Shown: positions 5,319 through 51,951, counted from the stretch's first letter. The stretch is DNA of 64,000 nt from Candidatus Latescibacterota bacterium (GCA_963791045.1 CAWBQK010000007.1:1-64000); one strand, 5' to 3'. Notes: generated by a model not told the origin, from the letters alone. Translations and numbers: made by a program.

Positions 5319-5354
5319 AAAAAGACCCCGGTGTGTTCTCACCGGGGCTTTTTT
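5319..5354. terminator. Bidirectional intrinsic terminator
   Basis: A-run, CCCCGGTG/CACCGGGG stem and T-run between convergent genes. Confidence 0.85.
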
Positions 5355-5377: not shown

Positions 5378-6421
5378 TCAAGCCGCTGGGGTCATCCATC
5401 CGTTGGTCCGCGACATCACTCCCGCCTGATCGACCACAAACGCCTCGGTTGCGGGAAGCGATTCCACAAGCCCAAGGCCCCTCTCCGCGGGAAGGACAAA
5501 GACGGCGGTTGAAAGCGCGTCGGCTTCGGCAACGGACTCGGTGCGAACCGTAACGCTGACGCGGTGCCCCGGAGACAATCCGTTTGACGGGTCGACGATG
5601 TGGTGGAAGAGTCTTTCCTTGTCATAAAATATTTCGTAGCTGCCCGAAGTGGCGACGGCTCCGTCGGTCATCTCGACGATCCCGGGGAAGTTGCCGTTCT
5701 TGCGCGGATCCTCGATCGCGATAGCCCAGGGTTCGCCATCCTGCCTGGCGCCGCGTGTGCGAATGTCTCCGCCGGCGTTTATCAAATGACGGTTGGCGCC
5801 GTTGCGGGCAAGAGTCTCGGACATCCGGTCGACGATAAACCCCTTTGCGATTCCATCGAGGGTAACGCCCATCCCGGCGCGGTCGAAAGCGATCCGATTC
5901 GACGTGACCCGGATGTAGTTCATTCCGACGAGTGCGAGTGATTCGTCAATCTCGCCGCGCGACGGGGCGCCCGTTTTAGCGTGCGATTCGAAGAGGTCGA
6001 CGAGAGGTTTTACAGTGATGTCGAAGGCGCCATCGGTTGACCGGTGCAACTCCGTGGACCGCGTGACAAGCGAGGCGAGTTCAGGCGGCGGGCCATCGAG
6101 GGTTCCCTTATCGTTAAAAACAGAGACAGCCGTTGAGTTGTCATAGCGGTTGAAGATCGCGATCAACCGATCCATCTCCTCGAAGGCACGGCCTATAGAC
6201 TCCTCCGCCCTATCGCGGGAGTCGCCAATGATCGTCGCGGTGACGTAAGTGCCCATGGTCGCACGGGTTTGCTCGATCTTCAAAAGCCGGCCGTCAAGAC
6301 GCACAACCCGGTACGCCGCCTGAAGGGTGCCACCGGCGACCGCGCCGACACCGAAGACGCCGCATGCTTTCAAAAATGTTCTTCGATCGACCCGTGACAA
6401 GAATGCGCGACCACTACCCAT
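5378..6421 (-). CDS. apbE: FAD:protein FMN transferase
   Basis: TMGT, GAFDITV, LDGIAKG, NAGGD, ATSG, HIVDP and ADALSTA motifs; N-terminal twin-arginine signal DRRTFLK. Confidence 0.96.
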   Translation of the reverse strand: MGSGRAFLSRVDRRTFLKACGVFGVGAVAGGTLQAAYRVVRLDGRLLKIEQTRATMGTYVTATIIGDSRDRAEESIGRAFEEMDRLIAIFNRYDNSTAVSVFNDKGTLDGPPPELASLVTRSTELHRSTDGAFDITVKPLVDLFESHAKTGAPSRGEIDESLALVGMNYIRVTSNRIAFDRAGMGVTLDGIAKGFIVDRMSETLARNGANRHLINAGGDIRTRGARQDGEPWAIAIEDPRKNGNFPGIVEMTDGAVATSGSYEIFYDKERLFHHIVDPSNGLSPGHRVSVTVRTESVAEADALSTAVFVLPAERGLGLVESLPATEAFVVDQAGVMSRTNGWMTPAA

Positions 6422-6439: not shown

Positions 6440-6634
6440 TTAGCGATACTCCTGGTTATCCTTGTGCTGGGCGCATCCGTGACATCCGTCGTGGGTCCCG
6501 CAGGACCGGCATGCGAGCACATCCGTGTCGTGTCCCATTTCAGGCGATCCGCGGCGGACGAGCGTCTGCACGCCGACCCATATACCGATCAGTCCTACAA
6601 CGCCGATAACGGCTATCAAAAGATGATAAAACAT
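6440..6634 (-). CDS. Small membrane protein with a 4-Cys tail (NqrM-like candidate)
   Basis: ATG directly after the rnfA stop; N-terminal TM helix then CRSCGTHDGCHGC; lies between rnfA and apbE. Confidence 0.7.
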   Translation of the reverse strand: MFYHLLIAVIGVVGLIGIWVGVQTLVRRGSPEMGHDTDVLACRSCGTHDGCHGCAQHKDNQEYR

Positions 6635-6635
6635 G

Positions 6636-7217
6636 CTAGCGACCCATCCCCGCAAAACCCATAAACGCCATCGAGAGAACTCCCGCGATCATTAACGTAA
6701 GTGCCGCGCCTTTTACAACCGATGACACGTCGGCAAGCTCGAGCCGTTCGCGAAGTCCCGACATCAGAAGGAGCGCGATGGTGAAACCGACACCGGCGCC
6801 TAGCGCAAACGCGAGTGACTGAAGAAAATTGTACTCCCGGTTGGTCTGGAAAAGCGCGACCCCGAGGATTGCGCAGTTTGTCGTAATGAGCGGGAGAAAA
6901 ATGCCGAGCGCCCGAAAAAGCGCCGGGCTGAATTTCTTGATGAACATTTCGACGAGCTGAACCGAAGAGGCGATCACCACGATATAAGAAATCAGGTGAA
7001 GATAGGGCGCGTTGATTGCGACGAGAACCTTGTGGATGCCAAACGCGCAGATCGAACTTACCAGCATGACAAAGGTGACCGCAGCGCCCATTCGCGCCGC
7101 CTTGTCGATTTTGTCGGACACGCCGAGGAACGGGCAGATCCCGAGAAACATCGCGAGAACGAAGTTGTTGATTAGACACGCCTCGATAAAAATCTGGAGT
7201 GGCGATCCGGTGTTCAT
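6636..7217 (-). CDS. rnfA: Rnf electron transport complex subunit A
   Basis: NNFVLAMFLGICPFLGVS and LGIFLPLITTNCAILG motifs. Confidence 0.96.
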   Translation of the reverse strand: MNTGSPLQIFIEACLINNFVLAMFLGICPFLGVSDKIDKAARMGAAVTFVMLVSSICAFGIHKVLVAINAPYLHLISYIVVIASSVQLVEMFIKKFSPALFRALGIFLPLITTNCAILGVALFQTNREYNFLQSLAFALGAGVGFTIALLLMSGLRERLELADVSSVVKGAALTLMIAGVLSMAFMGFAGMGR

Positions 7218-7849
7218 GCTTGTTGCGCCTTTCTTCGTTCGCGAAACCAATTGAAGAGAAGCAGCCACCCGCCGAGGACAAAAAACGCCCCGCCGGGGAG
7301 AATCATTATCGACCATGGTTCAAAGCTCGAACCAAATATTGGTATTCCGGCGATCGAACCGCTTCCAAATATCTCGCGGACGAAACCAAGCGAAAAACAA
7401 GCGATGGTGAATCCAATCCCCATTCCGAGAGCGTCGAGGATTGATTTGCCGACGCTGTTCTTTGACGCGAAAGCCTCGGATCGTCCTAGAATTATACAGT
7501 TCACCACGATAAGCGAGATAAACGCGCCGAGCGCTTTGTGAATATCGAGCGAGATCGCCTGGAGCAAGTAGTCGACGACGGTGACAAACGTGGCGATAAT
7601 GAGAATAAAAGAGGCGATGCGGACCTGTTTTGGGATAAATTTTCGGACAAGCGATACCATGGTGCTCGACATCACCAGAACAAATGTCGTGGCCGCGCCC
7701 ATCGCGAGGGCGTTGACCACCGAGTTGGTGACGGCGAGGACGGGGCACATCCCGAGGAGCATCACAAAGACGGGGTTCTCCTTCCACAGCCCCTTGAGGA
7801 ATACATCCATGGTCTGTGGCCCTTTTGGCGTTGTTTTGGGCTCCGTCAT
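7214..7849 (-). CDS. rnfE: Rnf electron transport complex subunit E
   Basis: GLWKENPVFVMLLGMCPVLAVT, LIVVNCIILGR and LPGGAF motifs. Confidence 0.96.
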   Translation of the reverse strand: MTEPKTTPKGPQTMDVFLKGLWKENPVFVMLLGMCPVLAVTNSVVNALAMGAATTFVLVMSSTMVSLVRKFIPKQVRIASFILIIATFVTVVDYLLQAISLDIHKALGAFISLIVVNCIILGRSEAFASKNSVGKSILDALGMGIGFTIACFSLGFVREIFGSGSIAGIPIFGSSFEPWSIMILPGGAFFVLGGWLLLFNWFRERRKAQQA

Positions 7850-8559
7850 CTGTCGGCTCCATTTTTGAGCGTGTCGAGGTTCTTGAAGATTACCGGGATA
7901 TTGGCCGCGGTGCTCTTTTCGAGTATCGTGGTGACGGCACGCGACGAAATCGTTGCGCCGGTAATCGATTGAATCTGCCACGGGTCGGTTTTCTCGCCGG
8001 GCTTGACCAGAACGATCGGGTTGATGATGCCGGCGCCGGCGTCATCGAATTGCACTTCGAGAGCTTCGAAGTTGGCGCGGAACTCTGGGTCCTTTTCTAT
8101 CTTGTCGCCGAGCCCCGGGGTTTCTTTGCTTTCGAGCACCTTCATCCCGACTATCGCTTTTTTGGCGGGGGAGTAACCGTAAATCAGCTTCAGCACATCC
8201 TGGAAACCCGATCCCGACGCTTCCATGGCGACACCGACGAGATTCTTGTCGTCGTCGTAACAGGCGTAGAATTTCATTGCCGAAGTTTGATCACCTTCGA
8301 ACGGCTTGAGTGCGCCGTCGACGAGGGTAAAGGTGGACTTTCCCGTCGCACCCGGGACCACTTCGAAGATCGCCCGCTCGAGCGCTTCCGCCTTGTTCTT
8401 CGTGATCACGGGAAGCGTGAGTTGGAAAGTCAAAACGATCAGAATCCCGCACACCAGGCCGATCCCGCCCATGGTCGTTACCATGCGAAAGCTGTTTGCC
8501 GACTGCGACGCCCGTGGCGGTGGCGCTGTGACTGGTTTATTTTTCTCGTCTGTTGTCAT
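7846..8559 (-). CDS. rnfG: Rnf electron transport complex subunit G
   Basis: N-terminal TM helix, ETPGLG, flavinylation motif ITGATISS. Confidence 0.94.
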   Translation of the reverse strand: MTTDEKNKPVTAPPPRASQSANSFRMVTTMGGIGLVCGILIVLTFQLTLPVITKNKAEALERAIFEVVPGATGKSTFTLVDGALKPFEGDQTSAMKFYACYDDDKNLVGVAMEASGSGFQDVLKLIYGYSPAKKAIVGMKVLESKETPGLGDKIEKDPEFRANFEALEVQFDDAGAGIINPIVLVKPGEKTDPWQIQSITGATISSRAVTTILEKSTAANIPVIFKNLDTLKNGADR

Positions 8560-8579: not shown

Positions 8580-9611
8580 TCAGGCCGTTGATTTCTCCGT
8601 TTTTCTAGCGCCGTAAATCTTCGGTTGCGTGAATCGGTCGATCAGAGGTGTTACCGCGTTCATGAGAAGGATCGAGTACATGACGCCTTCGGGCAGCCCG
8701 CCAAACTGACGGATGGTTACGACAAGAATTCCCACGCCCGCGCCGAATATCCAACACCCACGCGGAGTGACCGGCGAAGTGACAGGGTCGGTCGCCATGA
8801 ATATCGCGCCGAGCATCAAGCCGCCGGAGAACAGGTGGAACAGGCCGTCGGGGAAGCGTTCCGGGTTAATCAAGTGAAGGACCGTTGCGAGAACAAAGAC
8901 GGTCACGAATATAGACAGCGGAATTCGCCAGTTAAGAAACTTGCGGATGGCGAGGTACGCCCCGCCGATGAGTATCAACACGGCGCTGGTTTCCCCGAGG
9001 GATCCAGGGATCGAGCCAAAAAGAAGACCGGTAACTTCGGTCGGGATTTGGTCGAATTTCATTTGCGAAAGGGGCGTGGCCGAACTCACCGCGTCGAACT
9101 GGGGTGAGGTGAAGGGAATCGCAAAGGTATCACCCCGAAGCTCGGCGAATCGGCTGAGGTTGCCGAACGGCGCCCATGTGGTAAGCGCCACGGGAAAACA
9201 TGCTTGCAAGAAAGCCCGTCCGGTGAGAGATGGGTTGAACACATTGTGACCGAGGCCACCAAAAATCACTTTGCCAAAAGTGATCGCCGCCGCGCCTCCG
9301 ACAAACGCCATCCACGCGGGGAGTCCCGGGGGCAGGGTCAGCGCGAGGAGTACGCCGGTCAAGATCGCGCTACCATCGGTGATCGTGCTCTTTTCGAACA
9401 CCCGCCGGCCCGTAAAAATCCACTCGGCCGCGATCGCCCCGAGAACACAAGAAACGATGACGAGGAGGCCGCTCAGGCCAAAAAAGTACACGGATGCGCC
9501 GACAACGGGGAGCAGCGCGTAGAGCACGTGGCGCATGATCGCCGGTGTGTCGACGGGACGTTTCACATAGGGTGACGTCGAAAGAACGAGTCGGGGTGCA
9601 TCGCGGTTCAT
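8580..9611 (-). CDS. rnfD: Rnf electron transport complex subunit D
   Basis: FGGLGHNVFNP, flavinylation motif VSSATPL, GSLGETS, FMATDPVTSP, PEGVMYSILLMN. Confidence 0.96.
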   Translation of the reverse strand: MNRDAPRLVLSTSPYVKRPVDTPAIMRHVLYALLPVVGASVYFFGLSGLLVIVSCVLGAIAAEWIFTGRRVFEKSTITDGSAILTGVLLALTLPPGLPAWMAFVGGAAAITFGKVIFGGLGHNVFNPSLTGRAFLQACFPVALTTWAPFGNLSRFAELRGDTFAIPFTSPQFDAVSSATPLSQMKFDQIPTEVTGLLFGSIPGSLGETSAVLILIGGAYLAIRKFLNWRIPLSIFVTVFVLATVLHLINPERFPDGLFHLFSGGLMLGAIFMATDPVTSPVTPRGCWIFGAGVGILVVTIRQFGGLPEGVMYSILLMNAVTPLIDRFTQPKIYGARKTEKSTA

Positions 9612-10990
9612 TTTGCTCCGGCTTTCTCTCCCGCTGCGCGCTCTTCGCGGGCCTTTTCTTCTTTTTCTCTCGCTTGCTTTTCGCGGAGCATCGCCTTTGC
9701 CACTCTGAACCGCTGGACGAGCGGGATGTTTGACGGGCACACATACGAGCACGATCCGCATTCAATGCAATCCATTATATTATAGTCGAGCATGTCCGCG
9801 AAGCGTCCCACGCGGGAGAGCATCCCAAGCTGGCTGGGGTTGAGAAATACGGGGCAAGCGCCGAGGCATGCCGAACACTTGATGCACGGGTACTCGCGCC
9901 GTGACATTACTTCTTTTTCAGTGAGGCAGACGATACCCGACGTGCCTTTCAAGACGGGTACTTCGAGATTATACTGGGGCGTTCCCATCATCGGTCCGCC
10001 GAAGAGGACTTGTCTCGCGTCGTCGGTCAACCCGCCGCAGTAGGAGAGCACATCGTGGAGTTTGGTTCCGATCGGTATAAGAAGCGTCGACGGCGTGTCG
10101 ATGCCCGCGCCCGTCACGGTGACGACCCTCTCTATCAAAGGCTGCCCGAACTCGAAGAGATCTCCCACTCCGGCGACGGTTGCCACGTTTTGGACAACCA
10201 CTTGTACGTCTATTGGCAAGTTGCCCGATGGGACTTCGCGGTCGATAACGGCCGAGATGAGCATCTTCTCGGCGCCCTGCGGATATTTTGTCTGGAGCGG
10301 AATCAACTCGCATGGCAAATCGGCCGGGATTCTGTCTCTCAATATCTTTATGGCGTCCCACTTGTTGGTCTCAACGCCTATAAATGATTTCTCAGATCCG
10401 AGAATCTTCTGAATGACACGGACGCCAAGAAAGATCTGGTCGGCCCACTCGAGCATTACTCGATGGTCGCTCGTCAAATACGGCTCGCACTCACAGCCGT
10501 TGACAAAGAAATATTGAACCCGTTTACCTTCGGGGGGTGCGAGCTTTACATGAGTGGGAAAAGCGGCTCCGCCCAGACCCACAAAACCGCCGTCCTGGAT
10601 TTTTTGAAGGAGTTCTTTGGGGTTGAGGCGCTCCCAATCAATGGGGCGTTCGTCGAAAAGCGTCTGCGGAGAGTGCGGGTCGCTCTCTATCACGATCGAT
10701 TCGACGAGGCGGCCCGAAGGGTGGTGTCTGTTTTCGATGGCGGTAACTTTACCGGTGACCGACGCGTGCAGAGGAACCGATACAAAGCCGTTCGCGGTGG
10801 CGATAACCTGCCCGCGGTATACTTTGTCGCCGACCGACACTGTCGATTCCGAAGGCGCCCCCAGATGCTGGCTAAGGGGCAGGATTACCTCGTCGGGAAC
10901 GGGTATCCGCTCGATTTTCTGACCTTCCGTCAGATGCTTGTGCCCCTCCGGATGAACTCCGTGGCGAAATGTCTTTGTTCGCTCAGTCAT
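9608..10990 (-). CDS. rnfC: Rnf electron transport complex subunit C
   Basis: QHLGAP, GLGGAAFPTHVK, NGCECEPYLTSD, KYPQGAEK, GGPMMG; two 4Fe-4S motifs (CIKCSACLGACP, CIECGSCSYVCP). Confidence 0.97.
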   Translation of the reverse strand: MTERTKTFRHGVHPEGHKHLTEGQKIERIPVPDEVILPLSQHLGAPSESTVSVGDKVYRGQVIATANGFVSVPLHASVTGKVTAIENRHHPSGRLVESIVIESDPHSPQTLFDERPIDWERLNPKELLQKIQDGGFVGLGGAAFPTHVKLAPPEGKRVQYFFVNGCECEPYLTSDHRVMLEWADQIFLGVRVIQKILGSEKSFIGVETNKWDAIKILRDRIPADLPCELIPLQTKYPQGAEKMLISAVIDREVPSGNLPIDVQVVVQNVATVAGVGDLFEFGQPLIERVVTVTGAGIDTPSTLLIPIGTKLHDVLSYCGGLTDDARQVLFGGPMMGTPQYNLEVPVLKGTSGIVCLTEKEVMSRREYPCIKCSACLGACPVFLNPSQLGMLSRVGRFADMLDYNIMDCIECGSCSYVCPSNIPLVQRFRVAKAMLREKQAREKEEKAREERAAGEKAGAK

Positions 10991-13900
10991 CACCGGTCTC
11001 TTTAGTCGGTGTCGTCTGCTTGTTTCGCTCCAGGAACTCTCCTAGTGTCATTCCAAAAAACTCGTTGTCCTGCCCGTACCCACAAAGATGGAGAAGGGTC
11101 TCGGTAAGCCTCTTTTCGACCGTGTGATCGAGTTTTGGTGGCGGAGGCGGTTCGCGAAGTTCGTCGCCGGCTTCGCCGGATTTGTCGTCGGTGTCCGGTT
11201 TGAATTCGGGCATGATCGTTTCCGAGAGCTCGCGGAGGTAATTCCAGAACTCGAGTCCGTCTTCGACCGCGTCGATCAGCGCGGGAGACACGATAGCGAG
11301 AAAATGCATCTGGTTTTCATCGACGATGTCGATATACGGCTCGTAATCGACCCGGTCGGCGTCGTCTATTTCGAGGAACTCGGCGAGGTGTTTCATTTGA
11401 TCGTTGAGATGTCCCCGAGGCACGACTTTGAAGTGCCGCTGGAAACGCGCCTCCCGGAAGGCCCAGTCCGCCATGGTGAGAGCCGGCGCGATCGATTTCT
11501 CATACCCCGCCGGATCCTTTATCATTACATCCTGACTCGTCCAGTTCCTGTCCGGATCCGGGTTGCCCTCGAGCGACAACATCGCGTCCTCGCGGTCGGG
11601 ATCGAGTTTGAACAGCGGGAACGCTCGGCTCTCATACGCCACCCGCGCCTGGTCGATAACGTGCTCGGGCGCGACGCCGCTGGTCTGCGGATCGGGCGCG
11701 AAAATATGAAAAAGCGAGGGGCGCCGTTGCCGCAATCCCTCGGAGACACCCTGGATCAGGTGACCGGGATTGCCAACACTGGTTTGAAGAACATACACAT
11801 CTCGTTGTGACAAAAGAAGATACCCGAGGTTGTTCTCGGCCTGGACGCCGGCGAGATGCCCCATGTCGGTGTCGGGCTCCCCTGAGTCGTCGTCTTTTAT
11901 CGTCACAGCCTGCGTGTTAATAACCACAACACGTATCGGGTGATCGCTCGTCAAGAGACGGCCGATCTCCTCGCAATTGGTCGATCCGCTGTGCGTAATC
12001 ACAATGACCGGCGGGAGGAGATTTCTTTCGGCGTCGCTCAAACTGGTCTGGTTGAAGTTTTCAAAGAACTCGTCGTGTTCGTACGGGTCGTATTTGTCCG
12101 CGGCTTCGAGTTCCGCCTGACGGCAGAGTTTGAATTCCTCGACCATCTGCCGCGCGATTCCTTCGAAAACACCCTCGGCGAGCGCCGGCGCGTCACCGGG
12201 AAGGTGGCTGACCCATGGATGTTGATGCGGGTTGTACGGATAGGTTCCACTCCAGTAAGCCGTGCCGCCCGGGTCGACGGTAATCGCCATGCGTGCGCGA
12301 CCGGTTCCGCTTCCGCCTTCGAGATAGAGCCGGCGCTGTTCCTTGAGCTGGCCAAGAAGGCCGGTCAAGCGGGCGAGCTGATCCTTGTCGACATCTCGTG
12401 TGTCGTTGTCATCGTCAATCAGCCTGGCGAGCGATTCGGCTGAGAAGCCTTCGCGGCGAACCCGCGACAGTTGCTGTCCGAATCTCTCAAAGTCGTTGAT
12501 TTGAAGTGCCCGCGCGACCTTGCCCTGTATCCTTTGTTCGAGCTCTTCAATCAATGTGTCGAGACGCTTGACGTGCGCGTCGAATCTCGGGCGCATAACC
12601 GATTCGACCGTTGCCGTGACGAGGTGGATCGCCGTTTTTACGCTGTTCCCGGGGAATGCCGCATCGCCGCCGACCATCGAGTGGTACGCCGTCTTGTTGA
12701 GAAGCCTGTAGACATTCTCATCCGGATCTTCTTTTGAAATCGATTTCTCAATTTCTTCACTCGACACTTCTGGAAGCGACATCTGGAAATCCCAGATGTG
12801 GCTGTTCTTTTTGAGAAGTTCGGGTGTCTGGTCGATCCAGGTGTAAGCGTCGTTCGGGCACACTTCGATACAGAGTCCGCATCCGGTGCAGCTCAGTGGG
12901 TTGTGCGCTATCGACAAAAGCCCGCCGCTTCCTTTGGTGTCTTTGTGCGGTGTATTGAAGAACCTGTCGGTCTTGCTCACCGGGTGGTGTTCCACAAGCC
13001 GGTGAATCGGTTCGAATTCCTTTGTGAGCGCCTCGAGCTTCTCACCTTCGAGACCCATCTTATCGGTGAGCCTTGAGAACGCCTCTTTGAGGACCGCTCC
13101 CAATTCGTGGTACTGACCGAGTTCGTCCTTGAGAATCAGAGTGTAAGCCTGTTTGGCAAGATGCTCGGCGGCGCGTTGCATCTGGACCATTGGGGTCCCG
13201 TTCTCTTCGCAGTGTTTCATTGCCGTCTGTAAAAGCGCCGGTATACTCTGAAGCGAAGGGGGAAGCGCCGAGTCGGGGCAGAGCGACCAGCACAGTCCGC
13301 ACCCTTCACAGCTCGTCGGATTCCACAGAGGTATCCGGAGCCGATAAGGCGACATGTCGCGAAACGCGCTGCTCCCCGCGGGCATTATTCCCGTCGCGAG
13401 ATACGGATCGGTTATCGTTTCATCCTGCTCGCCCGCGTTGTAGAGATATCCCACCGAATGCCAGAAACGGTTCACGTCGAACACGGTGTGATCGTGCTGG
13501 TCGACCTGTTGGACCGTCCATGGGGCCTGCGATTCGGTCGGCATGGGACGCCGGTCCTTGTCGAGCGCCTCCCAGTCGAGAAGCGTAAGTTCGTCGGTTC
13601 CGCGCATGACACAATTCGAGATATCCTCAATGAGGTAGTGCGACGGTCCGAAGATGTGGGAAAGGCGTTTGCCAAAATGTTCGAGAAACGTTTTTAGATC
13701 GTCGTCCGATACGAGTTCGCCGACCTTGAGATACGCGCCGAAGAGCGCCCAGATGACAAGCTGATCCACAAACGATGGACGCGAAGCTGTCTCCGAGGCG
13801 ATCTTTCGAGAATCGATCGTGTAGATCCGGATGTCGTGCTTGCGAATCCAGCCGATCGTTCGATTGGAAAGTGACTGCCAGAAATCCTCGGGACTCCGGT

Positions 13901-15662
13901 TGGATTCGATAATAAGGGTCGCCTGGTTTTTTGGCCGGACCCGCGACGGCAGATCCTCTATCAGCCGATCGCCTGAGACGAGAATCATGTCGAGAAGATC
14001 GGGTTTGTTCTTGAGCGGTTCGTCTTCTTTGGCGTGTACGATTGTAAACGTCACCGGCTGGATCGTTGGTTCGAGGCCTCCCACGGGGAATGTTTTGATC
14101 GTCCAGTTGAGCGCGTTGGCCAGTGTCTGGGCGAACAGGTTTCCCGCGAAAATGCCTCCCTGGACGGCGAGCGAATGAAGCTGGATGGCGTATCCTGGCA
14201 GTTCGATACCCTCTGCATCCGGGGCCTCGGCGACGCTCAAATCGTCGAGATCGGGGTACGCCCTGTCGAGCCTCTGTTTCAGTGACTCGAGATGGGGAAA
14301 CCGCCGGTCGGGCGCGTCGAAAACACCGCCGACGTAATAATTCCGTTTGTTCGATCCTCCCTCGAGCATATTGCGAAAGACCGCCGCGAGATCACCGAAC
14401 GAGGGAAGTACGCCGCCGACGCCAAAAGCACCGGAGAATATTCGCGGGCGGTCGCCGGGTCGCTGGTAGCTGTTATACCCGGGATATGGGCTGGCGCCTT
14501 CTCCGGCGGCTCCGTTTTCGATCGCCTTCGAAATGGCCGAACGTATTTCTTTTGTGATTGGAAGGTCCTCGGCCAGGGGCTGGTCCGTCCGCTCGAGAAT
14601 CGTGACGGCGCGTTTGCCCTTCAACATCTGTGTGATTTCGGCGCCGGGGAATGGGCGGTACATCCTTAAACCCACCACACCCGCCTTTATTTTTTCCGTG
14701 GAGCGAAGGTAATCGACAACAGTTTCGAGCTCGTCGAGGATCGCCCCCTGTGCGACGACAACCACGTCGGCGTCTTCGACCCGATACCCGGACACTTTGT
14801 GATACACACGCCCGGTGAGTTTGGCGAAATCGCTCATCGCGAGATCAACGATGCCGCCGATGTGGTCGAGAAAGAACGGCCGTTGGGCGGCAACCGCGCG
14901 GTAATAGCTTTCATGATCCTGTGTGCCGCCGACTCCAACCGGCCTGTCGCGATCGACAAGCACGGGAATTCTCCGTCTTTTTTCGCCAAAGAGAAAGGTC
15001 TGGGAAGGGGTCGGGCATGGAATCATATCTTCGGGGCGGCCAAGGTAGCGCGCCACGAGTCCGCGTTCGGGCAGGCGAACCGTCTGGACGGAATGCGTGG
15101 TTCTGTAGAAGTCCTGGGCGCATATGCCCGGGGTCAACGCTTGCTCGGCGATCCTATGCGCGATAAGCGTTAGATCGGCCGTCTCCTGCGCGTTTTGGGC
15201 AAAGAGCTGAAAACACCCCGCATCGGCCACTCTATAATAATCATCGTGGCTGCCGTGGAGCGCCCCCGCCTGACGTTGTAGCGCGCGGCATGTGAGATTC
15301 ACCACATATGTAAGACGTTTGCCAGCGGCGGAGGAGAGCGCCTCGTGGGTGGCGTTGAGATTGTTCGTGAGCCCCGCCACGCGGAGCCCCACCTGGGCGT
15401 ACCCCGCGAGCTGGCCGAGCATCGGCCTGAGATGTTTGATCTGCCGGACTGTGACCGGCTGGTCGGAGATCGTTTCGTGGCCGGGCGGCGCGAGATTGCG
15501 CATGGGGCCGGTGATCTCCGCCAACTCGGGCACCGCACGTATGAGAACGGCCTCGCTGGCCATATTCTCAACTGTGAAGACCGCGGCGTGACCGTCAAGG
15601 GCGTGTTTTTGCCCCGGGAAATTGAAGCTTTCTGTCCTTGTTTTTGTTTTGCGAAACCACAT
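10983..15662 (-). CDS. Large PFOR/NifJ-like protein with degenerate catalytic motifs and two intact ferredoxin motifs
   Basis: Colinear with single-chain PFOR (HGSHDDY, FAQNAQETADLTLIAHRIAE, RMYRPFP, TILERTD, MPAGSSAFRD, AYESRAFPLF). Retains CEGCGLCWSLCP and CTGCGLCIEVCP but lacks YPITP, GDG and the proximal-cluster cysteines. Confidence 0.88.
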   Translation of the reverse strand: MWFRKTKTRTESFNFPGQKHALDGHAAVFTVENMASEAVLIRAVPELAEITGPMRNLAPPGHETISDQPVTVRQIKHLRPMLGQLAGYAQVGLRVAGLTNNLNATHEALSSAAGKRLTYVVNLTCRALQRQAGALHGSHDDYYRVADAGCFQLFAQNAQETADLTLIAHRIAEQALTPGICAQDFYRTTHSVQTVRLPERGLVARYLGRPEDMIPCPTPSQTFLFGEKRRRIPVLVDRDRPVGVGGTQDHESYYRAVAAQRPFFLDHIGGIVDLAMSDFAKLTGRVYHKVSGYRVEDADVVVVAQGAILDELETVVDYLRSTEKIKAGVVGLRMYRPFPGAEITQMLKGKRAVTILERTDQPLAEDLPITKEIRSAISKAIENGAAGEGASPYPGYNSYQRPGDRPRIFSGAFGVGGVLPSFGDLAAVFRNMLEGGSNKRNYYVGGVFDAPDRRFPHLESLKQRLDRAYPDLDDLSVAEAPDAEGIELPGYAIQLHSLAVQGGIFAGNLFAQTLANALNWTIKTFPVGGLEPTIQPVTFTIVHAKEDEPLKNKPDLLDMILVSGDRLIEDLPSRVRPKNQATLIIESNRSPEDFWQSLSNRTIGWIRKHDIRIYTIDSRKIASETASRPSFVDQLVIWALFGAYLKVGELVSDDDLKTFLEHFGKRLSHIFGPSHYLIEDISNCVMRGTDELTLLDWEALDKDRRPMPTESQAPWTVQQVDQHDHTVFDVNRFWHSVGYLYNAGEQDETITDPYLATGIMPAGSSAFRDMSPYRLRIPLWNPTSCEGCGLCWSLCPDSALPPSLQSIPALLQTAMKHCEENGTPMVQMQRAAEHLAKQAYTLILKDELGQYHELGAVLKEAFSRLTDKMGLEGEKLEALTKEFEPIHRLVEHHPVSKTDRFFNTPHKDTKGSGGLLSIAHNPLSCTGCGLCIEVCPNDAYTWIDQTPELLKKNSHIWDFQMSLPEVSSEEIEKSISKEDPDENVYRLLNKTAYHSMVGGDAAFPGNSVKTAIHLVTATVESVMRPRFDAHVKRLDTLIEELEQRIQGKVARALQINDFERFGQQLSRVRREGFSAESLARLIDDDNDTRDVDKDQLARLTGLLGQLKEQRRLYLEGGSGTGRARMAITVDPGGTAYWSGTYPYNPHQHPWVSHLPGDAPALAEGVFEGIARQMVEEFKLCRQAELEAADKYDPYEHDEFFENFNQTSLSDAERNLLPPVIVITHSGSTNCEEIGRLLTSDHPIRVVVINTQAVTIKDDDSGEPDTDMGHLAGVQAENNLGYLLLSQRDVYVLQTSVGNPGHLIQGVSEGLRQRRPSLFHIFAPDPQTSGVAPEHVIDQARVAYESRAFPLFKLDPDREDAMLSLEGNPDPDRNWTSQDVMIKDPAGYEKSIAPALTMADWAFREARFQRHFKVVPRGHLNDQMKHLAEFLEIDDADRVDYEPYIDIVDENQMHFLAIVSPALIDAVEDGLEFWNYLRELSETIMPEFKPDTDDKSGEAGDELREPPPPPKLDHTVEKRLTETLLHLCGYGQDNEFFGMTLGEFLERNKQTTPTKETGDD

Positions 15663-15692: not shown

Positions 15693-16534
15693 TCAGGTTT
15701 GCCCGCTTTCCGGGGTGTTTTTGAACTGTTGTCCGTCCACCCACGCGATCGCGCCCGTCGGACACCGCCGGATAACATCCGGCGATTCCATGTGGAGCAT
15801 ATCGGTGTTAACGGCAGGAAGGTTGTTTTTCATCCTGACAAGCCCTGGGGAGAATCGGCCACGCATTTGCCGCAGGCCGTGCAAGCTACCTTGCAAAGAT
15901 CGAGTACCTTGTCTCCCTCGAGTTCGGATTTACATTGAACGAGAACATGCTGTCTTGCGGGAACAAGTTCGATGATGCCCTTCGGGCAAATCCTCACACA
16001 GTCCCCACACGCCGTACACTTGTCAAAGTCGATTATCGGGAGCCCGGTCGGGCCCATGGTGATCGCGTCAAAATCACAAACCACCTGGCAGTCGCCAAAT
16101 CCGAGGCAGCCGTAACGGCATCCTTTGACCGCCTCCGCCGCCGCGACCGCCGCCCGGCAAGAAGGGAAGCCCTTGTATTCGGCCATCTGGATGGCGACGT
16201 TAGTGCCGCCCCGCGCAATGGAGACGTGCGATCTTGCGATCGAGCGTGCCCGCGTCGACGCCAAGAAAATCCGCCACCTCCGCCGCCGTTTCGGCTCCTC
16301 CGACCGTGCATTGGCTGGGCTGGATTTCTCCTGCGACCGCTTTTTCGGCGAACATCCGGCAACCGGGGAGTCCGCACGCGCCGCAGTTTGTGTTGGGGAG
16401 CATGTCGAAGACATCGTCGATTCTCGGGTCTTCGAACACTTTGAGTTTGCGTTCGCCACGGCGAGCACGACGGCCAGCACGCTCGCAAGACCCAGCAAAA
16501 ATCCGATGGCTATGACGTTTTGCATTTCTGTCAC
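15693..16534 (-). CDS. rnfB: Rnf electron transport complex subunit B (about 3 indels)
   Basis: N-terminal TM, then in alternating frames VFEDPRIDDVFDMLPNTNCGACGLPGC, CRYGCLGFGDCQVVCDFDAI, CTACGDCVRICP, CKVACTACGKC, RRCPTGAI. Confidence 0.9.
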
Positions 16535-19164
16535 TAGTTGAATTTGGCCGCGCGTTGGACGAGATCGTCCAGGCCCGTTTCATCGGGATTCCCCGGTTTC
16601 CCCGGGTGGATAATGTGCACGGGGCATTTCTCCGCGGCGGTTACCAGCTCGCGGAACGTTCCGGCCGAGGCGTCCTTGACAAACGCCTGTTTGTTTTCGT
16701 TGTAGGCGAACATTTTACCGTTGAGGTTCGTGCACTCGTTGCACGTAGTACACAGAGGCGTGTCGATATAGGGTTCATCGAACGAAATCGCCTCGTCCTC
16801 TTCTTCTTCGGTTTCGACTTCCGGGGCGGCCGGCGCATCCGTTGTGTCCGTCGAGTCGGTCGATGGCGCGGGAGCCGGAGTCGTCGGCGCCAACGGGGCG
16901 TCCATTCCGATTCCGCCTCCGTAGACGATTTGATTGACGATCCGCTGGACCACCTCGCGTGTCAGCTCGCCGATATTGCGTCCAAGCTGCGAATCGAATT
17001 TCTTCTTAATGGCGTCGACTTCTGTTTGCTTGTTGTCTTCCAGCTTTTGCTTCTCGCCTGAAAGCGCGTCGTCGACAAACGAATTGTTAACACCGCCGTT
17101 TTCCTGGATGTTCCGCCAGAAAGAGCCGCACGACTCAACCGCGCCGAGAACGGCCCTGGTCACGACGATTCGGCTGATCCGCCCGTCCGTCCCAACGCCG
17201 GCGATATACGGAATCCTGGTCTCGGCCGTATCCGCGTCCAGCTTGAGGTACTCGTCGACCGGGATCATGTCCTTGTGCCATTTGTCGGCCGGCACGCGCC
17301 AAAAGTGTTGCGAGAGACGAATGTCGCCGAAGAGAAAATCGGCCGGCGTGAACGCAAGGTCGATCGATTTCTCGTCTCCATTCGCGTTCTGGTACGAAAA
17401 CGCGTCAACGGACCACTCGTGGTCGATTCGAGGGTTGTCGGAGACGCTTGTACGGTCGTAAAGCGTACGCCCTTTGCCGGGGTCGTATGTGAATACGGGG
17501 AACACCCGGGACTCGGTCGCCGTCGCCCCGCAGTGGAACGTGGTGAGCCCCGGTTGGTCATCCCGGTTTCCTTCGAAAACGCAAAAAACCGCCGGACCAG
17601 AATAACTGAGACCCTCCATGAGACTTTTCTGAAGAAGCGGTGCATTGGAAACGGGGCACTGAAGCACGTAAATGTCGTCGAGCGCCATCACCATTTTTGC
17701 CAGCCGCGTTTGCCAGCCAAAAATGATGTCCGCACTTTCGCTCGTGCGCTCGGAATCCAGAAGGCTGTCGAGTTGAACGAGAATCTTGACGGGGATTTCC
17801 GACGCAAGTACATCGAAGAGCTGACCCTTGTCGCGATTTGCAAAGAACTCGCCTGTCAACACGAGAAGGATCGGCGGACAGAGTTCGACCTCGGTCGAAG
17901 TCAAATGCGCGAGATCGAAATGATCGAAAAACGCGTCGTGAATCTGTTCGTGGTAACGGTTCGCCACTTCCAGCCGGGCAATTTCGACCGCTTTGAAGAA
18001 TTCGACGAGCGTCTTCATCTGTTCATTGTAGCGGGTGAACACCGCGGCGCAGTCATTCTCGATGATCTCGATTTGGAGGGGTTGATTCGTTTTCTTGGAT
18101 TTTCCTTTGTGCGAAGTCACCTTCGTTATGTCGAAGAGCGGTTTGATGCGGTCGATAACCTCCAGCGCGCCGGTGATCCGCTTGCGCCTTGATTCAGGGA
18201 TCGGATCGCCGAGGTCGCTCTCTTTGAGAATCGAGGACATCGCTTGGAAATCGAGTTCTTCTTCATCGCCGGACCCCACGGACGCCTTGAGATGTTCCGG
18301 GCTCTTGGCCTCGGGAGAGTGTATGAAATCGGCGGCGAGGATTTCCCGGAGCTCGAAAATCAGCATATCGAGATCCTGGCGCCACGCCGTGCAGTGCTTT
18401 CTCCACTGGAGCTGTACGGCGGCTTCGAAGAGCCGGCGAGACGTCGTCTTGTCGCAGACGAGAACCTCACCGTCGGAGCGGAGTGCACCGCGTGCGACAT
18501 TCATGTCCTGCTTCAACATCTGCTTTTCGTCGACGACGAGACGGGTTGCCGCGACGATGTCGTCGGCCGCCTGGTTCCACAAGATGGAAAGACCCGTGCC
18601 CGGCTTTTTCTCGGCAAGTTCTTTTACCTTCGCCTCGAGTTGATAGAGGTGCCTCGTCAATCTCTGGCCTTCGTCGCTCGAGTCCGCGACGGCGGAAATA
18701 ACCTCGTCGACGATCGCGGTCAGGGTCTTCGCCGGCGTCTCCCTGTCGCCTCCGGTCAGGCACAGCGGGTAGTCGTAACGAATATTCGAAAGGTCTTTGA
18801 AGCGTGCAATCAGGGCCGGGGTCGGCCACGACTCTGATGCGTGCGTGACCGGCTCCGAGCCGACATTCCCGTACAGACAAAAACGCCGCAGTTCGGCGAA
18901 AGTGGCGTCGGCTTCATGGCCGTCGTCCTCTCCTTGCTCGGCGTCTCCGGGCGTTTCCGTTTCCCACGCGAGTGCGGGTTCAACGGGAAGCCGCGACGGT
19001 GCGGAAGTTGTATCTGCGCCCGCCGCGGTTGAGTCTGTATTTTCCGTCAGCTGTTCTGTTTGATTCGCCGGATTGCTGTCTTCACTTTTTGCCGGTTCCG
19101 GATCCTTCACCGTTCCCACTCTTAACCACCTCGGCGGCATCCGTCTGGATACCGAATTTGTCAA
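16534..19164 (-). CDS. Degenerate PFOR beta-like domain protein with C-terminal ferredoxin (start uncertain)
   Basis: CPPILLV...LASEIPVKILV...YVLQ...GLSYSGPAVF...ATESRVFPVFTYDP parallels the C-terminal domain of the 1559-aa protein; acidic Pro/Thr linker; C-terminal CTTCNEC...AEKCP. Confidence 0.8.
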   Translation of the reverse strand: MTNSVSRRMPPRWLRVGTVKDPEPAKSEDSNPANQTEQLTENTDSTAAGADTTSAPSRLPVEPALAWETETPGDAEQGEDDGHEADATFAELRRFCLYGNVGSEPVTHASESWPTPALIARFKDLSNIRYDYPLCLTGGDRETPAKTLTAIVDEVISAVADSSDEGQRLTRHLYQLEAKVKELAEKKPGTGLSILWNQAADDIVAATRLVVDEKQMLKQDMNVARGALRSDGEVLVCDKTTSRRLFEAAVQLQWRKHCTAWRQDLDMLIFELREILAADFIHSPEAKSPEHLKASVGSGDEEELDFQAMSSILKESDLGDPIPESRRKRITGALEVIDRIKPLFDITKVTSHKGKSKKTNQPLQIEIIENDCAAVFTRYNEQMKTLVEFFKAVEIARLEVANRYHEQIHDAFFDHFDLAHLTSTEVELCPPILLVLTGEFFANRDKGQLFDVLASEIPVKILVQLDSLLDSERTSESADIIFGWQTRLAKMVMALDDIYVLQCPVSNAPLLQKSLMEGLSYSGPAVFCVFEGNRDDQPGLTTFHCGATATESRVFPVFTYDPGKGRTLYDRTSVSDNPRIDHEWSVDAFSYQNANGDEKSIDLAFTPADFLFGDIRLSQHFWRVPADKWHKDMIPVDEYLKLDADTAETRIPYIAGVGTDGRISRIVVTRAVLGAVESCGSFWRNIQENGGVNNSFVDDALSGEKQKLEDNKQTEVDAIKKKFDSQLGRNIGELTREVVQRIVNQIVYGGGIGMDAPLAPTTPAPAPSTDSTDTTDAPAAPEVETEEEEDEAISFDEPYIDTPLCTTCNECTNLNGKMFAYNENKQAFVKDASAGTFRELVTAAEKCPVHIIHPGKPGNPDETGLDDLVQRAAKFN

Positions 19165-20098
19165 AGGCCTTGTCCAACGTGTTTTCTATTTGCTCACTGC
19201 ACGGCCCGCGTTTTGGTTTCTTGAGATCCTCATAGCGGGGCACCGTTTCATCACGGAAGAAGATACCAACCGGGACGACCTCTTCGAGGCTCGCCAGTTC
19301 TCTCGCCCTGTGGATGTCCAGCGGATCGTGCTCTTCGTGGTTCTTGTAGATCCTGCCAATGGTGTCGCTGATATTTATCCCGTTTTCATGCTTGAGAAGC
19401 AGAACCTTGTCGGGGTTCGATACCACCGAGGAAAAGAAGTCGGGCATGAAATGTGGGCACCGCTGCAGGATTCGAACAAACGAGAACCCTTTATGATGAA
19501 ACGCCTGATGAATGACATCATACAACAATTCAGGAATCCACTCCACGACTTGTGCGACGAATGAGATATTTGATACGCCGAGCGTGGTGCTGAGCGGATT
19601 GAGCGGTCCCAGCGTCTGGCCTCGCGGAGTGGTATTGGTCTTGTACCCCGTGGGAGTCGTTGGGGATGCCTGTTTTTTTGTCAGGCCGTAGATACTGTTG
19701 TCATGGAGCATGCATGTGATGTCCATGTTCAAGCGGATCGCATGGATCCAGTGGGCCGTACCGATACTGCAACAGTCGCCGTCCCCTGTGTTGACAAACA
19801 CATGGAGGTCGGGTCGCCGCATTTTGATCCCTTCGGCGACGGGAAGCGCCCGGCCGTGGAGACCGTGAAAACCATATGTCCCCATATAATGGGGGAATCT
19901 CGCCGCGCAGCCGATGCCGGAAACAAAAGTGGTTTTCTCGGGCGGAAGCTGCTCGTCGCGGCAGAGCCTCTGAACGGCGGCGAGGATTGCGTTGTCGCCG
20001 CATCCCGGGCACCAGCGGGACATCGATCCCTGGTAGGCTTCCAGAGGTTTGTACTCATCCTCAAGATTCAGAATGCATTGTGTTTTTAGACCAAACAT
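19082..20098 (-). CDS. korB: 2-oxoacid:ferredoxin oxidoreductase beta subunit (TPP-binding; substrate not determined)
   Basis: WCPGCG, SGIGC, HGLHGR, GDGD...N-x2-YGLTKKQASPT, ILQRCP. Confidence 0.93.
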   Translation of the reverse strand: MFGLKTQCILNLEDEYKPLEAYQGSMSRWCPGCGDNAILAAVQRLCRDEQLPPEKTTFVSGIGCAARFPHYMGTYGFHGLHGRALPVAEGIKMRRPDLHVFVNTGDGDCCSIGTAHWIHAIRLNMDITCMLHDNSIYGLTKKQASPTTPTGYKTNTTPRGQTLGPLNPLSTTLGVSNISFVAQVVEWIPELLYDVIHQAFHHKGFSFVRILQRCPHFMPDFFSSVVSNPDKVLLLKHENGINISDTIGRIYKNHEEHDPLDIHRARELASLEEVVPVGIFFRDETVPRYEDLKKPKRGPCSEQIENTLDKAFDKFGIQTDAAEVVKSGNGEGSGTGKK

Positions 20099-20102
20099 CG
20101 GA

Positions 20103-22010
20103 CTACCCCTCGCCTATGATGGTTTTGAGACGACGCCGGATTTCAGACTCGATCGCGCCCGGTCTGAATGGCTGCCCGTGAACCCGCGTGAACGAGTCGA
20201 TGTCGAGCAAATACCTGGCGCGGAGAAGCCACCCCAGGTTGGCGAATCTCCGGTTATCCTCATTGATGAGTTCGTCGTCGAGACTGTCGGAGTAATTGAT
20301 TTCGACGCTGAATACGTGTTTGAACCGCTCCATGATCTGTTTGAGTCCCGGAGCCATGGGCTGGAGGAACTTGAGATGGAGCGACGACACCTTGTGACCG
20401 TCACGTTGGAGGCGTTGGACGGCTTCCTCTATTGCGCCCTTGGTGCTGCCCCAGCCAATGACGAGGATGTCACCTTCCGGGTCGCCAAATACTTTTGGCG
20501 TCTTCAGTGTTTTTTGGAATGCAGCGAGTTTGAGGCTCCGGCTTCGGCAGCCTTCTTCGTTAACACCGGGCTCGTAGGCCACCTTGCCCTCGCGTGTGTG
20601 GGCCAGGCCGGTAAGCGTGTACATGCCGTTGGGTTGGCCTGGGATAAAGCGTTGCGACAGGCCTGTCTTGGGGTCCCAGTCGTAGGGCGGGTGTCCCTCG
20701 GGCGCTGGGCTCTGGTCCATCGGCGGCATTGCCCATTCTTTGTTGAATACCGGGCGCGTGAAAGCCTGCTGTCCGGTAGCGAGGTTGGCGTCGCTGAGGA
20801 CGACAACGAGCGTTCGGAATGTCTCGGCGATCTTGCGGGCGGTGATCATAGAGTAGAAACAGTCTTCGATGGTCGCCGCAGCCATGACGATCTTCGGCGC
20901 GTCTCCCGGCGTTCCAAAGATCGACGCAAGGAGGTCCCCCTGTTCGACCTTTGTCGGGAGGCCCGTGCTGGGGCCGCCGCGCTGAACGTTGACCAGGACG
21001 AGAGGAATCTCTCCCATGACCGACAAGCCCATCAGTTCTGTTTTGAGCGCCATGCCCGGACCCGATGTGATGGTGACGGCGCACTTGCCGGCGTACGAAG
21101 CGCCAAGGGCAAAGGCGCACGCGGCGATTTCATCCTCGGCCTGGTGAACGACGCCGCCGACTTCTTCGAAGATGTCGCTGAGGTAATGGGAAGCGGACGT
21201 CGCTGGTGTGATCGGGTACATCGCACACACTTCCATGCCCGATGCGACGACGCCCAAAGCGAGCGACGTATTGCCGTTCATCACGATTTGCGGATCTGTG
21301 ATTCCGCATGACGCCACGCCGAACTTGATGCCAAGATACTTTTCCGCCCAGTTGTAACCCGCTTCGATCAGGTCGATGTTGGGTTTGATGACCTTGTCGC
21401 CCTTTTTCTTGAACTTTTCGACGATTTGGTGGCGGGCGAGCTCGATATTGCGCGTGTAAATCGAGCAAAGCATCCCGAGCACGAACATGTTTTTGCCGCG
21501 CTGCGGATTGTCGACAAGCTTGCGGCATTCCTCCTCAAGAGGTACCTCGTGAACGCGGTAGCCCTCGGCCGTCATTTTGCCGACCATCTGTGTGTATGCT
21601 TCGACGACGTCGGGGTCTGTGTGGGTTTTCCACATGCTTTCGAGGAGGATGGTGCAACCGGGTTTGAACTTGCCCGTCGACATCCCTCCCATAAGAACTT
21701 GTTCGTTGAAAGCGACGACGAGATCGGCGAGGTCGCCGGCATTTGTGATAGGGAAGGACCCTATGCGGATGCGGATGCCGCTTGCGCCGGCGGCGCTGCG
21801 AACCGGCGGCTGAATTTCCGCCGGGATAATCTCGACAGTCCAGACACTGTTGCCCATCTTTGCCGAAACGGTGCCGAACATCTGGCCGGCGGTTTGCGCG
21901 CCTTCACCGGAGTCGGAAACGATTTCAACAATATGGGAGTCCACGATCGTGGGCTCTACAGTCTGTGCCTGCGCGGTGTCTTTGAGTTCTGGATCGGAAG
22001 ATGAGCTCAT
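20103..22010 (-). CDS. korA: 2-oxoacid:ferredoxin oxidoreductase alpha subunit (gamma-alpha fused type)
   Basis: DSGEG N-terminal gamma domain, MYPITP, QAEDEIAA, TSGPG, QRGGPSTGLPTK, GWGST. Confidence 0.94.
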   Translation of the reverse strand: MSSSSDPELKDTAQAQTVEPTIVDSHIVEIVSDSGEGAQTAGQMFGTVSAKMGNSVWTVEIIPAEIQPPVRSAAGASGIRIRIGSFPITNAGDLADLVVAFNEQVLMGGMSTGKFKPGCTILLESMWKTHTDPDVVEAYTQMVGKMTAEGYRVHEVPLEEECRKLVDNPQRGKNMFVLGMLCSIYTRNIELARHQIVEKFKKKGDKVIKPNIDLIEAGYNWAEKYLGIKFGVASCGITDPQIVMNGNTSLALGVVASGMEVCAMYPITPATSASHYLSDIFEEVGGVVHQAEDEIAACAFALGASYAGKCAVTITSGPGMALKTELMGLSVMGEIPLVLVNVQRGGPSTGLPTKVEQGDLLASIFGTPGDAPKIVMAAATIEDCFYSMITARKIAETFRTLVVVLSDANLATGQQAFTRPVFNKEWAMPPMDQSPAPEGHPPYDWDPKTGLSQRFIPGQPNGMYTLTGLAHTREGKVAYEPGVNEEGCRSRSLKLAAFQKTLKTPKVFGDPEGDILVIGWGSTKGAIEEAVQRLQRDGHKVSSLHLKFLQPMAPGLKQIMERFKHVFSVEINYSDSLDDELINEDNRRFANLGWLLRARYLLDIDSFTRVHGQPFRPGAIESEIRRRLKTIIGEG

Positions 22011-51193: not shown

Positions 51194-51363
51194 AAAATGG
51201 CGGACGCCAATGCTGTTGGGGCGGGTACGTCCGCGACGCGGATACAGGACGTTTATATAGTGTGATACAAATCGATAGAGGCCGTCTGCTGACCGCCGGA
51301 ACCGACTTTTAGCGACGGCTGGTAACCGAGGAGCAATCCTCAAATAACTTGGAGGTCCGTACG

Positions 51364-51936: not shown

Positions 51937-51951
51937 GAGGAAGGGGGTACG

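Follow-up and report, generated by a model that had tools for sequence, protein, structure and literature searches.

The window analysed here, a stretch of 64,000 nucleotides from Candidatus Latescibacterota bacterium (GCA_963791045.1 CAWBQK010000007.1:1-64000), encodes a protein of 1559 residues resembling pyruvate:ferredoxin oxidoreductase (PFOR), here labelled PFL, whose gene lies among those of the Rnf pump and close to korA and korB, which encode a two-subunit 2-oxoacid:ferredoxin oxidoreductase (OFOR). Judged by its sequence, PFL is a pseudo-enzyme, i.e., an enzyme-family homologue that lacks the catalytic and cofactor residues and is under purifying selection. It would descend from giant PFORs whose genes lie between rnfB and rnfC, and we lean slightly towards the view that PFL and X876 (the label used here for the product of a neighbouring 876-residue open reading frame, or ORF) serve as a scaffold or relay, bearing Fe-S clusters but not catalytic, by which KorAB is docked to Rnf.

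The PFL Gene and Its Predicted Fold

10983..15662, minus strand: PFL, a predicted catalytically dead PFOR paralogue of 1559 residues, domains I-II-III-IV-V-VI plus tail (ORF and translation, Pfam, NCBIfam, PDB matches, motif columns, AlphaFold2 [AF2] model)

The 1559 codons of PFL run uninterrupted on the minus strand of 10983-15662, where the plus strand is rich in stops. An earlier note on this DNA had picked out this unbroken ORF, which is real, but had missed its strand, its rnf context, and the second dead paralogue, X876. Pfam matches in PFL are POR_N (residues 105-261), PFOR_II (residues 298-380), a weak POR/gamma match (residues 501-666), and two Fer4 motifs; the same scan found no match to TPP_enzyme_C. 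Against the NCBIfam PFOR equivalog TIGR02176, PFL scores 164.2 bits, below the curated cut-off of 911.35. A phmmer search of the PDB aligned residues 19-379 with the M. thermoacetica PFOR 6cin_A (E 1.4e-34) and the C-terminal part weakly, and on the combined evidence of Pfam, PDB alignments, and fold comparison, domains I, II, III, IV, V, and VI follow one another as in PFOR.

The PFOR fold is predicted to be kept in the C-terminal half. An AF2 model of residues 720-1559 (pLDDT 79.4) compares with 6cin_A at a VIA Z score of 27.4 over 446 aligned residues (root-mean-square deviation 3.9), and with OFOR beta subunits at a Z of about 19. Its low-confidence parts include the former NTGGQ loop and the segment just past the former TGC site.

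Relatives of PFL are named "pyruvate-ferredoxin/flavodoxin oxidoreductase" by JGI, and "4Fe-4S binding protein," "2-oxoacid:acceptor oxidoreductase family protein," or "hypothetical protein" by NCBI. The expectation that automated pipelines would mislabel PFL as an active PFOR therefore holds for the JGI names only; the NCBI names differ, and the NCBIfam equivalog rejects PFL.

Loss of the Catalytic Motifs

As set out in part of PMC13768988, a 2026 review on PFOR, domains I and VI of PFOR bind thiamine pyrophosphate (TPP) and pyruvate, coenzyme A (CoA) is bound by domain III, domain VI carries the proximal cluster, and domain V carries the medial and distal clusters. Residue roles are given in a portion of PMC5020499: GDG and an Asn bind Mg2+ and diphosphate, a Glu activates TPP, the Thr of YPITP binds substrate (its mutants are inactive), CXGC ligates the proximal cluster, and in OFORs the Arg of a C-R-A segment binds the substrate carboxylate. 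These motifs were compared in an alignment of 24 sequences, comprising 13 dead-clade rows (PFL included) and 11 other rows (intact relatives), and every replacement claimed for PFL in the earlier note was reproduced there:

15525..15539, minus strand: YPITP substrate loop (domain I), now RAVPE, residues 42-46 (motif column)
15420..15443, minus strand: TPP-activating Glu segment, now QIKHLRPM, residues 74-81, with L78 in the column of the conserved Glu, the residue hydrogen-bonded to N1' of TPP (motif and conservation columns)
12645..12665, minus strand: C-x-G-C proximal-cluster ligands, now DAAFPGN, residues 1000-1006, with F1003 and N1006 in the Cys columns
12264..12272, minus strand: TGC (third Cys ligand), now PGG, residues 1131-1133, with G1133 in the Cys column
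11985..11996, minus strand: GGDG Mg/diphosphate motif, now THSG, residues 1223-1226
11691..11699, minus strand: P-C (fourth Cys ligand), now APD, residues 1322-1324, with D1324 in the Cys column

The DTQ-YSNTGGQ segment, which holds the NTGGQ diphosphate motif of domain VI, is replaced as well. All 13 dead-clade rows lack YPITP, the Glu, C-x-G-C, TGC, GGDG, DTQ-YSNTGGQ, and P-C, whereas the other 11 keep them, one row (P0086) deviating partly; YPITP itself is found in 0/13 dead-clade rows and in 10/11 of the others, the exception, P0086, reading CPIAP. KorA and KorB, as had been noted earlier, keep their motifs (YPITP and Glu in KorA; C-P-G-C, GIGC, GDGD, and C-P in KorB). What PFL lacks of a functional PFOR thus comprises YPITP, the TPP Glu, GDG/NTGGQ, the four proximal Cys, and a score above the TIGR02176 cut-off. 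Among positions at least 95% conserved in 49 intact relatives, 110 are lost in 24 dead-clade rows; the dead clade has gained only 12 clade-specific conserved positions, none of which is Cys, His, or Asp. Binding of TPP or of a proximal cluster in the known way should be impossible for PFL; substrate binding is also predicted to be lost, and CoA binding probably is.

Two sequences depart from this division. P0086, a member of the intact clade, lacks the Glu and NTGGQ in addition to having CPIAP, with the Cys ligands kept, and P0089, a member of the dead clade, has GGDG at the GDG site. Both may be intermediate states.

The Ferredoxin Domain, Its Insert, and the C-Terminal Tail

13275..13310, minus strand: ferredoxin motif 1, CxxCxxCxxxCP, residues 785-796 (C785/788/791/795), intact (alignment)
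12855..12890, minus strand: ferredoxin motif 2, CxxCxxCxxxCP, residues 925-936 (C925/928/931/935), intact (alignment)
10986..11222, minus strand: C-terminal tail, residues 1481-1559, a linker of low confidence and then a short helical motif that is conserved (consensus, pLDDT, selection analysis)

Both ferredoxin motifs had been reported as intact, and this stands: the eight Cys of domain V, which belong to the medial and distal clusters, are invariant in 24/24 rows. PFL would thus keep, along with the PFOR fold, the two [4Fe-4S] clusters of the ferredoxin domain. The two Cys motifs are separated by 129 residues in PFL, by 45 in canonical PFORs (n=3), and by 124-125 in intact long relatives (n=4). 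An insert of roughly 130 residues, as first described, is therefore correct as a separation, but the insert proper is about 80 residues, since 45 already separate the motifs in canonical PFORs; because four intact long relatives share the spacing, it is a family trait and not specific to the dead forms.

The tail occupies the place of a tethered ferredoxin in the intact relatives, and its G1528 is invariant in the consensus. Pfam finds no C-terminal single-cluster ferredoxin (Fer4_13) on PFL; this domain is instead on the separate protein X876. A regular expression for the tail motif matched 11/120 proteins, the pattern being too strict for counting.

One Dead Clade under Purifying Selection

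Searching 5.8 billion proteins brought up 101 relatives of PFL, of which about 70 have 1475-1590 residues and no TPP_enzyme_C match, about 14 have 1640-1695 residues with TPP_enzyme_C and a C-terminal Fer4_13, and a few are canonical PFORs of about 1170 residues. Dead forms remain open and full-length down to 27% identity. Scanning one genome per species gave at least 499 PFL relatives, with 73 loci kept, and motif classes divide the loci cleanly into dead (17 loci, some partial) and intact. The dead clade is found in metagenome-assembled genomes (MAGs) labelled, as deposited, Latescibacterota, Krumholzibacteriia, Gammaproteobacteria, Gemmatimonadota, Cloacimonadota, and Bacteroidota. With PFL residues 990-1559 as the query, 1.84 billion cluster representatives were searched without a profile, giving 376 matches at E <=1e-30; among the best 150 of these, 120 have none of the four catalytic motifs, 59 of them being at least 1400 residues long (clusters at 50% identity). 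"Mixed" motif classes account for 22/150 and are mostly regular-expression noise, the known dead forms P0063 and P0073 being among them. A 1608-residue ORF in one relative (G010) was considered as a co-resident intact copy and rejected as lying outside the PFL family.

When 81 full-length rows are placed in a tree with canonical PFORs as the root, the 24 dead ones group as a single clade (SH-like support 100), whose sister comprises 49 intact, mostly rnf-linked rows. This clade is retained when 400 trait-bearing columns are removed (support 98) and in IQ-TREE with 43 rows (SH-aLRT 97). Because the dead forms are one clade in all trees, a single ancient loss suffices for the pattern.

The ratio of nonsynonymous to synonymous substitution rates (dN/dS) across orthologues, which the earlier note had proposed as a check on neutral evolution, is 0.09-0.11 overall in three close relatives and hence not neutral (0.11, 0.086, and 0.087 among pairs of the dead-clade loci L015, L016, and L017; dS 0.23-0.75). 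Compared with the nearest orthologue available for this purpose, which is 69% identical, PFL shows a dN of 0.22, with dS saturated; P0002, represented by its protein sequence, is 86% identical. By domain, dN/dS among close relatives ranges from 0.04 to 0.21, with its minimum in domain I and the ferredoxin region (the latter 0.05-0.07) and its maximum in the tail (0.2); in 132 codons of the former catalytic segments, it is 0.056. Relative to the intact clade, the largest drops in conservation are at residues 41-120, at 481-680, which form the CoA domain, and at 1121-1280, with no reduction at residues 721-1000 (ferredoxin domain and insert). The idea of selective loss in a maintained protein is borne out by these data: conservation is lost at the TPP, proximal-cluster, and CoA sites, the ferredoxin domain is kept, and dN/dS is low. 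The loss is not decay.

X876, a Second Dead PFOR Piece

16534..19164, minus strand: X876, with a Cys-less part of domain V, domain VI, a long helix, a tether, and a single-cluster ferredoxin (BLASTP, AF2 model)

The true start of X876 probably lies downstream of the korB stop. BLASTP matches the protein to residues 987-1686 of P0077, an intact long PFOR (E 3e-74); the only Pfam match of X876 is the C-terminal Fer4_13, and GDG and the Cys ligands are absent from it. The AF2 model (pLDDT 79.4) has a body like PFOR domains V/VI (VIA Z 19.4 to 6cin_A), continues with a long helix and a tether of about 46 disordered residues, and ends in the ferredoxin, which compares with D. africanus ferredoxin I (1fxr) at Z 9.1 over 63 aligned residues with 29% identity. 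A complex prediction of X876 with the PFL tail (residues 1481-1559) scored 0.00 with a mark of 0.32, which is no answer and bears neither way.

A 347-residue protein homologous to the core of X876 occurs in intact-type loci (hhalign probability 96.6%, E 5e-10). This short homologue lies between korB and rnfB in 16/16 intact-type loci with korB and in 0/21 without it, so that the X876-type pseudo-beta subunit follows KorAB, not the dead state of PFL. Two dead-clade loci (L020:4992-5891 and L030:3148-4248) have an extra gene homologous to PFL domains I-II between korB and X876, an arrangement that suggests the splitting of a second PFOR copy into two genes.

The Operon and Its Context

The minus-strand order is korA-korB-X876-rnfB-PFL-rnfCDGEA-(4-Cys peptide)-apbE, which we read as one operon:

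20103..22010, minus strand: korA, alpha subunit of a two-subunit OFOR, motifs intact (TIGR03710, 512.7 bits, over the cut-off; 6n2n_A, E 7e-80)
19082..20098, minus strand: korB, beta subunit, TPP and Cys motifs intact (Pfam, NCBIfam; 5b46_B, E 3e-51)
15693..16534, minus strand: rnfB, read through three single-base indels in the assembly (orthologue comparison)
9608..10993, minus strand: rnfC (TIGR01945, 532 bits), its start overlapping the PFL stop by 11 bases
8580-9761, minus strand: rnfD (Pfam)
7846-8559, minus strand: rnfG (Pfam)
7214-7981, minus strand: rnfE (Pfam)
6636-7316, minus strand: rnfA (Pfam)
6440..6655, minus strand: peptide of 71 residues with one membrane helix and C-x2-C-x5-C-x2-C, between rnfA and apbE
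5378..6421, minus strand: apbE flavin transferase (Pfam ApbE, 239 bits)
5325..5348, either strand: strong two-way terminator-like hairpin closing the operon (9 pairs, 7 of them G-C, with a T run)

The closest structures are the M. marinus 2-oxoglutarate enzyme 6n2n_A for KorA and the S. tokodaii two-subunit enzyme 5b46_B for KorB, and KorAB is predicted to be a working two-subunit OFOR, most like 2-oxoglutarate enzymes. The operon's korA is the sole alpha subunit of its type over the cut-off in the genome. A sigma-70-like site upstream of korA (22466-22437) was considered as the promoter and rejected, its match being no better than chance.

The stop of X876 overlaps the start of rnfB, in which the indels lie near 16448, 16212, and 15842. 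The corrected frame matches 14/14 orthologues, each of which is in a single frame; relative to the listed rnfB ORF of 234 residues, both the conserved Fe-S domain at the N-terminus and the last 50 residues are out of frame. A relative's contig (run X4, about 85% identity) has an extra base at 16448 that is missing in the window. Because no other signs of decay were seen, the indels are possibly assembly errors.

For the 71-residue peptide, there is no Pfam family. Peptides resembling it come after rnfA in loci L016, L017, L031, L043, and L080; a regular expression for it matched 5/42 loci, again too strict a pattern for counting.

The order rnfB-PFL-rnfC(DGEA) recurs in those related loci that reach far enough; all of these loci are kin, with taxon labels as deposited. 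X876 is present in 14/14 dead-clade loci that extend upstream of rnfB, and korB in 10/10 that extend further. In five relatives (at least 95% complete) without PFL, there was no match to RnfC. For many intact relatives (Ectothiorhodospira, Thiothrix, Allochromatium, and others), the surrounding rnf operon has no korAB, so that the PFOR body is linked primarily to Rnf.

A locus from an Acidobacteriota MAG (L037:10001-21509) has two PFOR-like genes flanking rnfB, downstream of korAB. Intact giant PFORs with no rnf genes within 10 kb occur in Acidobacteriota and similar MAGs (L025, L026, L036, L040, L051, L056, L057, L064, and L070), and some of these rnf-less loci have apbE on the opposite strand. 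Elsewhere in the window, another OFOR-like system is encoded:

51349-55687, plus strand: four-subunit OFOR-like cluster

Two TGA stops suspected in a porA-like gene proved to be an artefact of the match range, the ORF at 53638-54810 being intact. At 23758-28543 on the plus strand are two large proteins of secreted type with Laminin_G_3 and He_PIG domains, the second having a type IX secretion C-terminal sorting domain below the Pfam cut-off.

Proposed Role and Alternatives

In the arrangement that we tend to favour, PFL, X876, KorAB, and the Rnf pump would be made from one operon, with PFL and X876 as a scaffold that carries Fe-S clusters, has no catalysis of its own, and sits at RnfB/RnfC on the cytoplasmic side of Rnf. 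KorAB would oxidise a 2-oxoacid, and electrons would pass from the single KorB cluster to the tethered ferredoxin of X876 and on, possibly through the two PFL clusters, to RnfB; Rnf would then reduce NAD+ and pump ions, or the whole chain would run in reverse. Free ferredoxin would be unnecessary. PFL is taken as an adaptor and not an enzyme because it is conserved, keeps two clusters, and lies within the Rnf genes beside a 2-oxoacid enzyme. The gene order, the stop/start overlaps of PFL with rnfC and of X876 with rnfB, the co-occurrence of the X subunit and korAB, and the joint absence of PFL and RnfC support this arrangement. It is the gene context that suggests a scaffold or electron-wire role for PFL, and we further infer assembly of the proteins, a position of the PFL clusters within the electron path, and the direction of flow. 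A bolder form is possible but doubtful, namely that the two dead PFOR paralogues, one with a two-cluster ferredoxin domain and the other with a ferredoxin on a swinging arm, are a permanent Rnf adaptor that hard-wires a two-subunit 2-oxoglutarate:ferredoxin oxidoreductase into the pump. The whole would then be a ferredoxin-free, ion-pumping 2-oxoacid:NAD+ oxidoreductase supercomplex, reversible to a 2-oxoacid synthase driven by membrane potential, and would have originated from an active PFOR, bound to Rnf beforehand, that lost its catalysis but stayed on for its architecture.

Several points weigh against the favoured arrangement. Genuine rnfB frameshifts would mean a broken pump in this organism. 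The trio that gave the pairwise dN/dS values is a sub-lineage labelled gammaproteobacterial and not close kin of PFL's own lineage, and the locus counts overstate independence, because the loci are kin. The two PFL clusters may lead nowhere instead of forming a wire; PFL may be mainly a scaffold, because the medial cluster has no known inner partner once the proximal cluster is gone. KorAB is not a simple replacement of the lost activity, since korAB also adjoins intact, presumably active PFORs of the sister clade. Nor is the operon module the sole route, since the same genome encodes a canonical PFOR (G000:C9:68-2446, 1201 bits, cut by the contig end), the four-subunit OFOR cluster, and a 2-oxoglutarate dehydrogenase E1.

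Some of these observations are also what would be expected if PFL were conserved as a subunit with neither catalysis nor specificity for KorAB, off the main electron path, as a docking platform for free ferredoxin or other 2-oxoacid oxidoreductases at RnfB, a redox-sensing gate, or a factor in Rnf assembly or stability. Such a role, which we consider rather unlikely, would suit the many intact relatives in rnf operons without korAB, the other ferredoxin-reducing enzymes of the genome, and, going by the PFOR architecture described in part of PMC13768988, the lack of an evident inner partner when there is no proximal cluster; it sits poorly with the presence of korB and X876 in 10/10 dead-clade loci that reach far enough, and the invariant eight Cys and the dN/dS of 0.05-0.07 in the ferredoxin region argue that the clusters matter. 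PFL could also still be an enzyme, with a re-built active site, another cofactor, or a TPP site completed in trans with X876 or KorB. Purifying selection over the whole protein, former catalytic segments included (dN/dS 0.056 over 132 codons), a conserved substitute loop, GGD-G/A-x-x-P-G, at the former Cys-pair site, and the mostly kept Arg of the C-R-A segment for the substrate carboxylate are compatible with this. We nevertheless think it improbable, given that the GDG, NTGGQ, YPITP, and Glu sites vary from row to row with no single conserved alternative, that 0/12 clade-specific conserved positions are Cys, His, or Asp, that X876 lacks the same motifs, and that the former NTGGQ loop and the segment after TGC are low-confidence parts of the model. 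Least credible by far is a decaying pseudogene whose frame is still open by chance. All catalytic signatures are indeed gone, and the neighbouring rnfB is frameshifted in the assembly, but full-length frames persist to 27% identity, 59 motif-less full-length clusters stand among the best 150 matches, dN/dS is about 0.1, and the dead forms are one old clade; we regard this explanation as refuted by the data on selection and breadth.

Relation to Known Systems and Implications

A PFOR encoded between rnfB and rnfC has been mentioned before, in one sentence on the rnf2 operon of the Solemya velum symbiont in the portion of PMC4287430 seen (Dmytrenko et al. 2014). PFL resembles the giant Rnf-embedded PFORs in lying between the same two genes, in its extra-long ferredoxin domain (129 versus 124-125 residues), in an insert of about 93 residues in domain VI, in an identity of 33-35% over the full length, and in being their sister clade. 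It differs from them in lacking the catalytic motifs, the four proximal-cluster Cys, and the C-terminal ferredoxin (which is separate, on X876), and in being about 100 residues shorter, ending in a short conserved helical motif. With the single-chain homodimeric PFORs (M. thermoacetica 6CIN, D. africanus 1B0P), it shares colinear domains I-VI, the eight Cys, and the C-terminal fold; unlike them, it has no TPP site or proximal cluster, a degraded CoA domain, two large inserts, and a place in an rnf operon. KorAB belongs to the two-subunit OFORs (S. tokodaii 5B46, M. marinus 6N2N), whereas PFL, with a ferredoxin domain and no catalytic equipment, does not. Two-subunit OFORs carry the proximal cluster only and have no ferredoxin domain, as stated in the part of PMC13768988 concerned with them, and PFL and X876 could supply that domain. 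In the Riftia symbiont, a "PFOR-like" gene, possibly of the PFL family, and dimeric korAB fall together in expression, as given in a section of PMC11636981. Beyond the PMC4287430 sentence, we found no literature on a dead PFOR, on X876, or on PFOR pieces in rnf operons.

Respiratory complexes, too, keep dead enzyme modules as Fe-S-bearing subunits, an example being the molybdopterin-enzyme-like domain of NuoG/Nqo3 in complex I. Like PFL, it is an ex-catalytic, cofactor-less domain kept beside intact Fe-S clusters in an ion-pumping redox complex; unlike it, PFL is of a different superfamily and is a putative member of an Rnf assembly.

The dead clade is large, with its 59 full-length clusters among the best 150 matches, and metabolic reconstructions that count its genes as PFOR, following the JGI labels, over-credit pyruvate oxidation or synthesis. 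Rnf is thought to draw electrons from freely diffusing ferredoxin. If the proposed arrangement is true, a donor enzyme, a tethered ferredoxin, and two large dead bodies would be built into the pump, which would be a new coupling of carbon metabolism to ion translocation, and PFL would offer a clear example from bacteria of an enzyme reused for its architecture, as complex I does.

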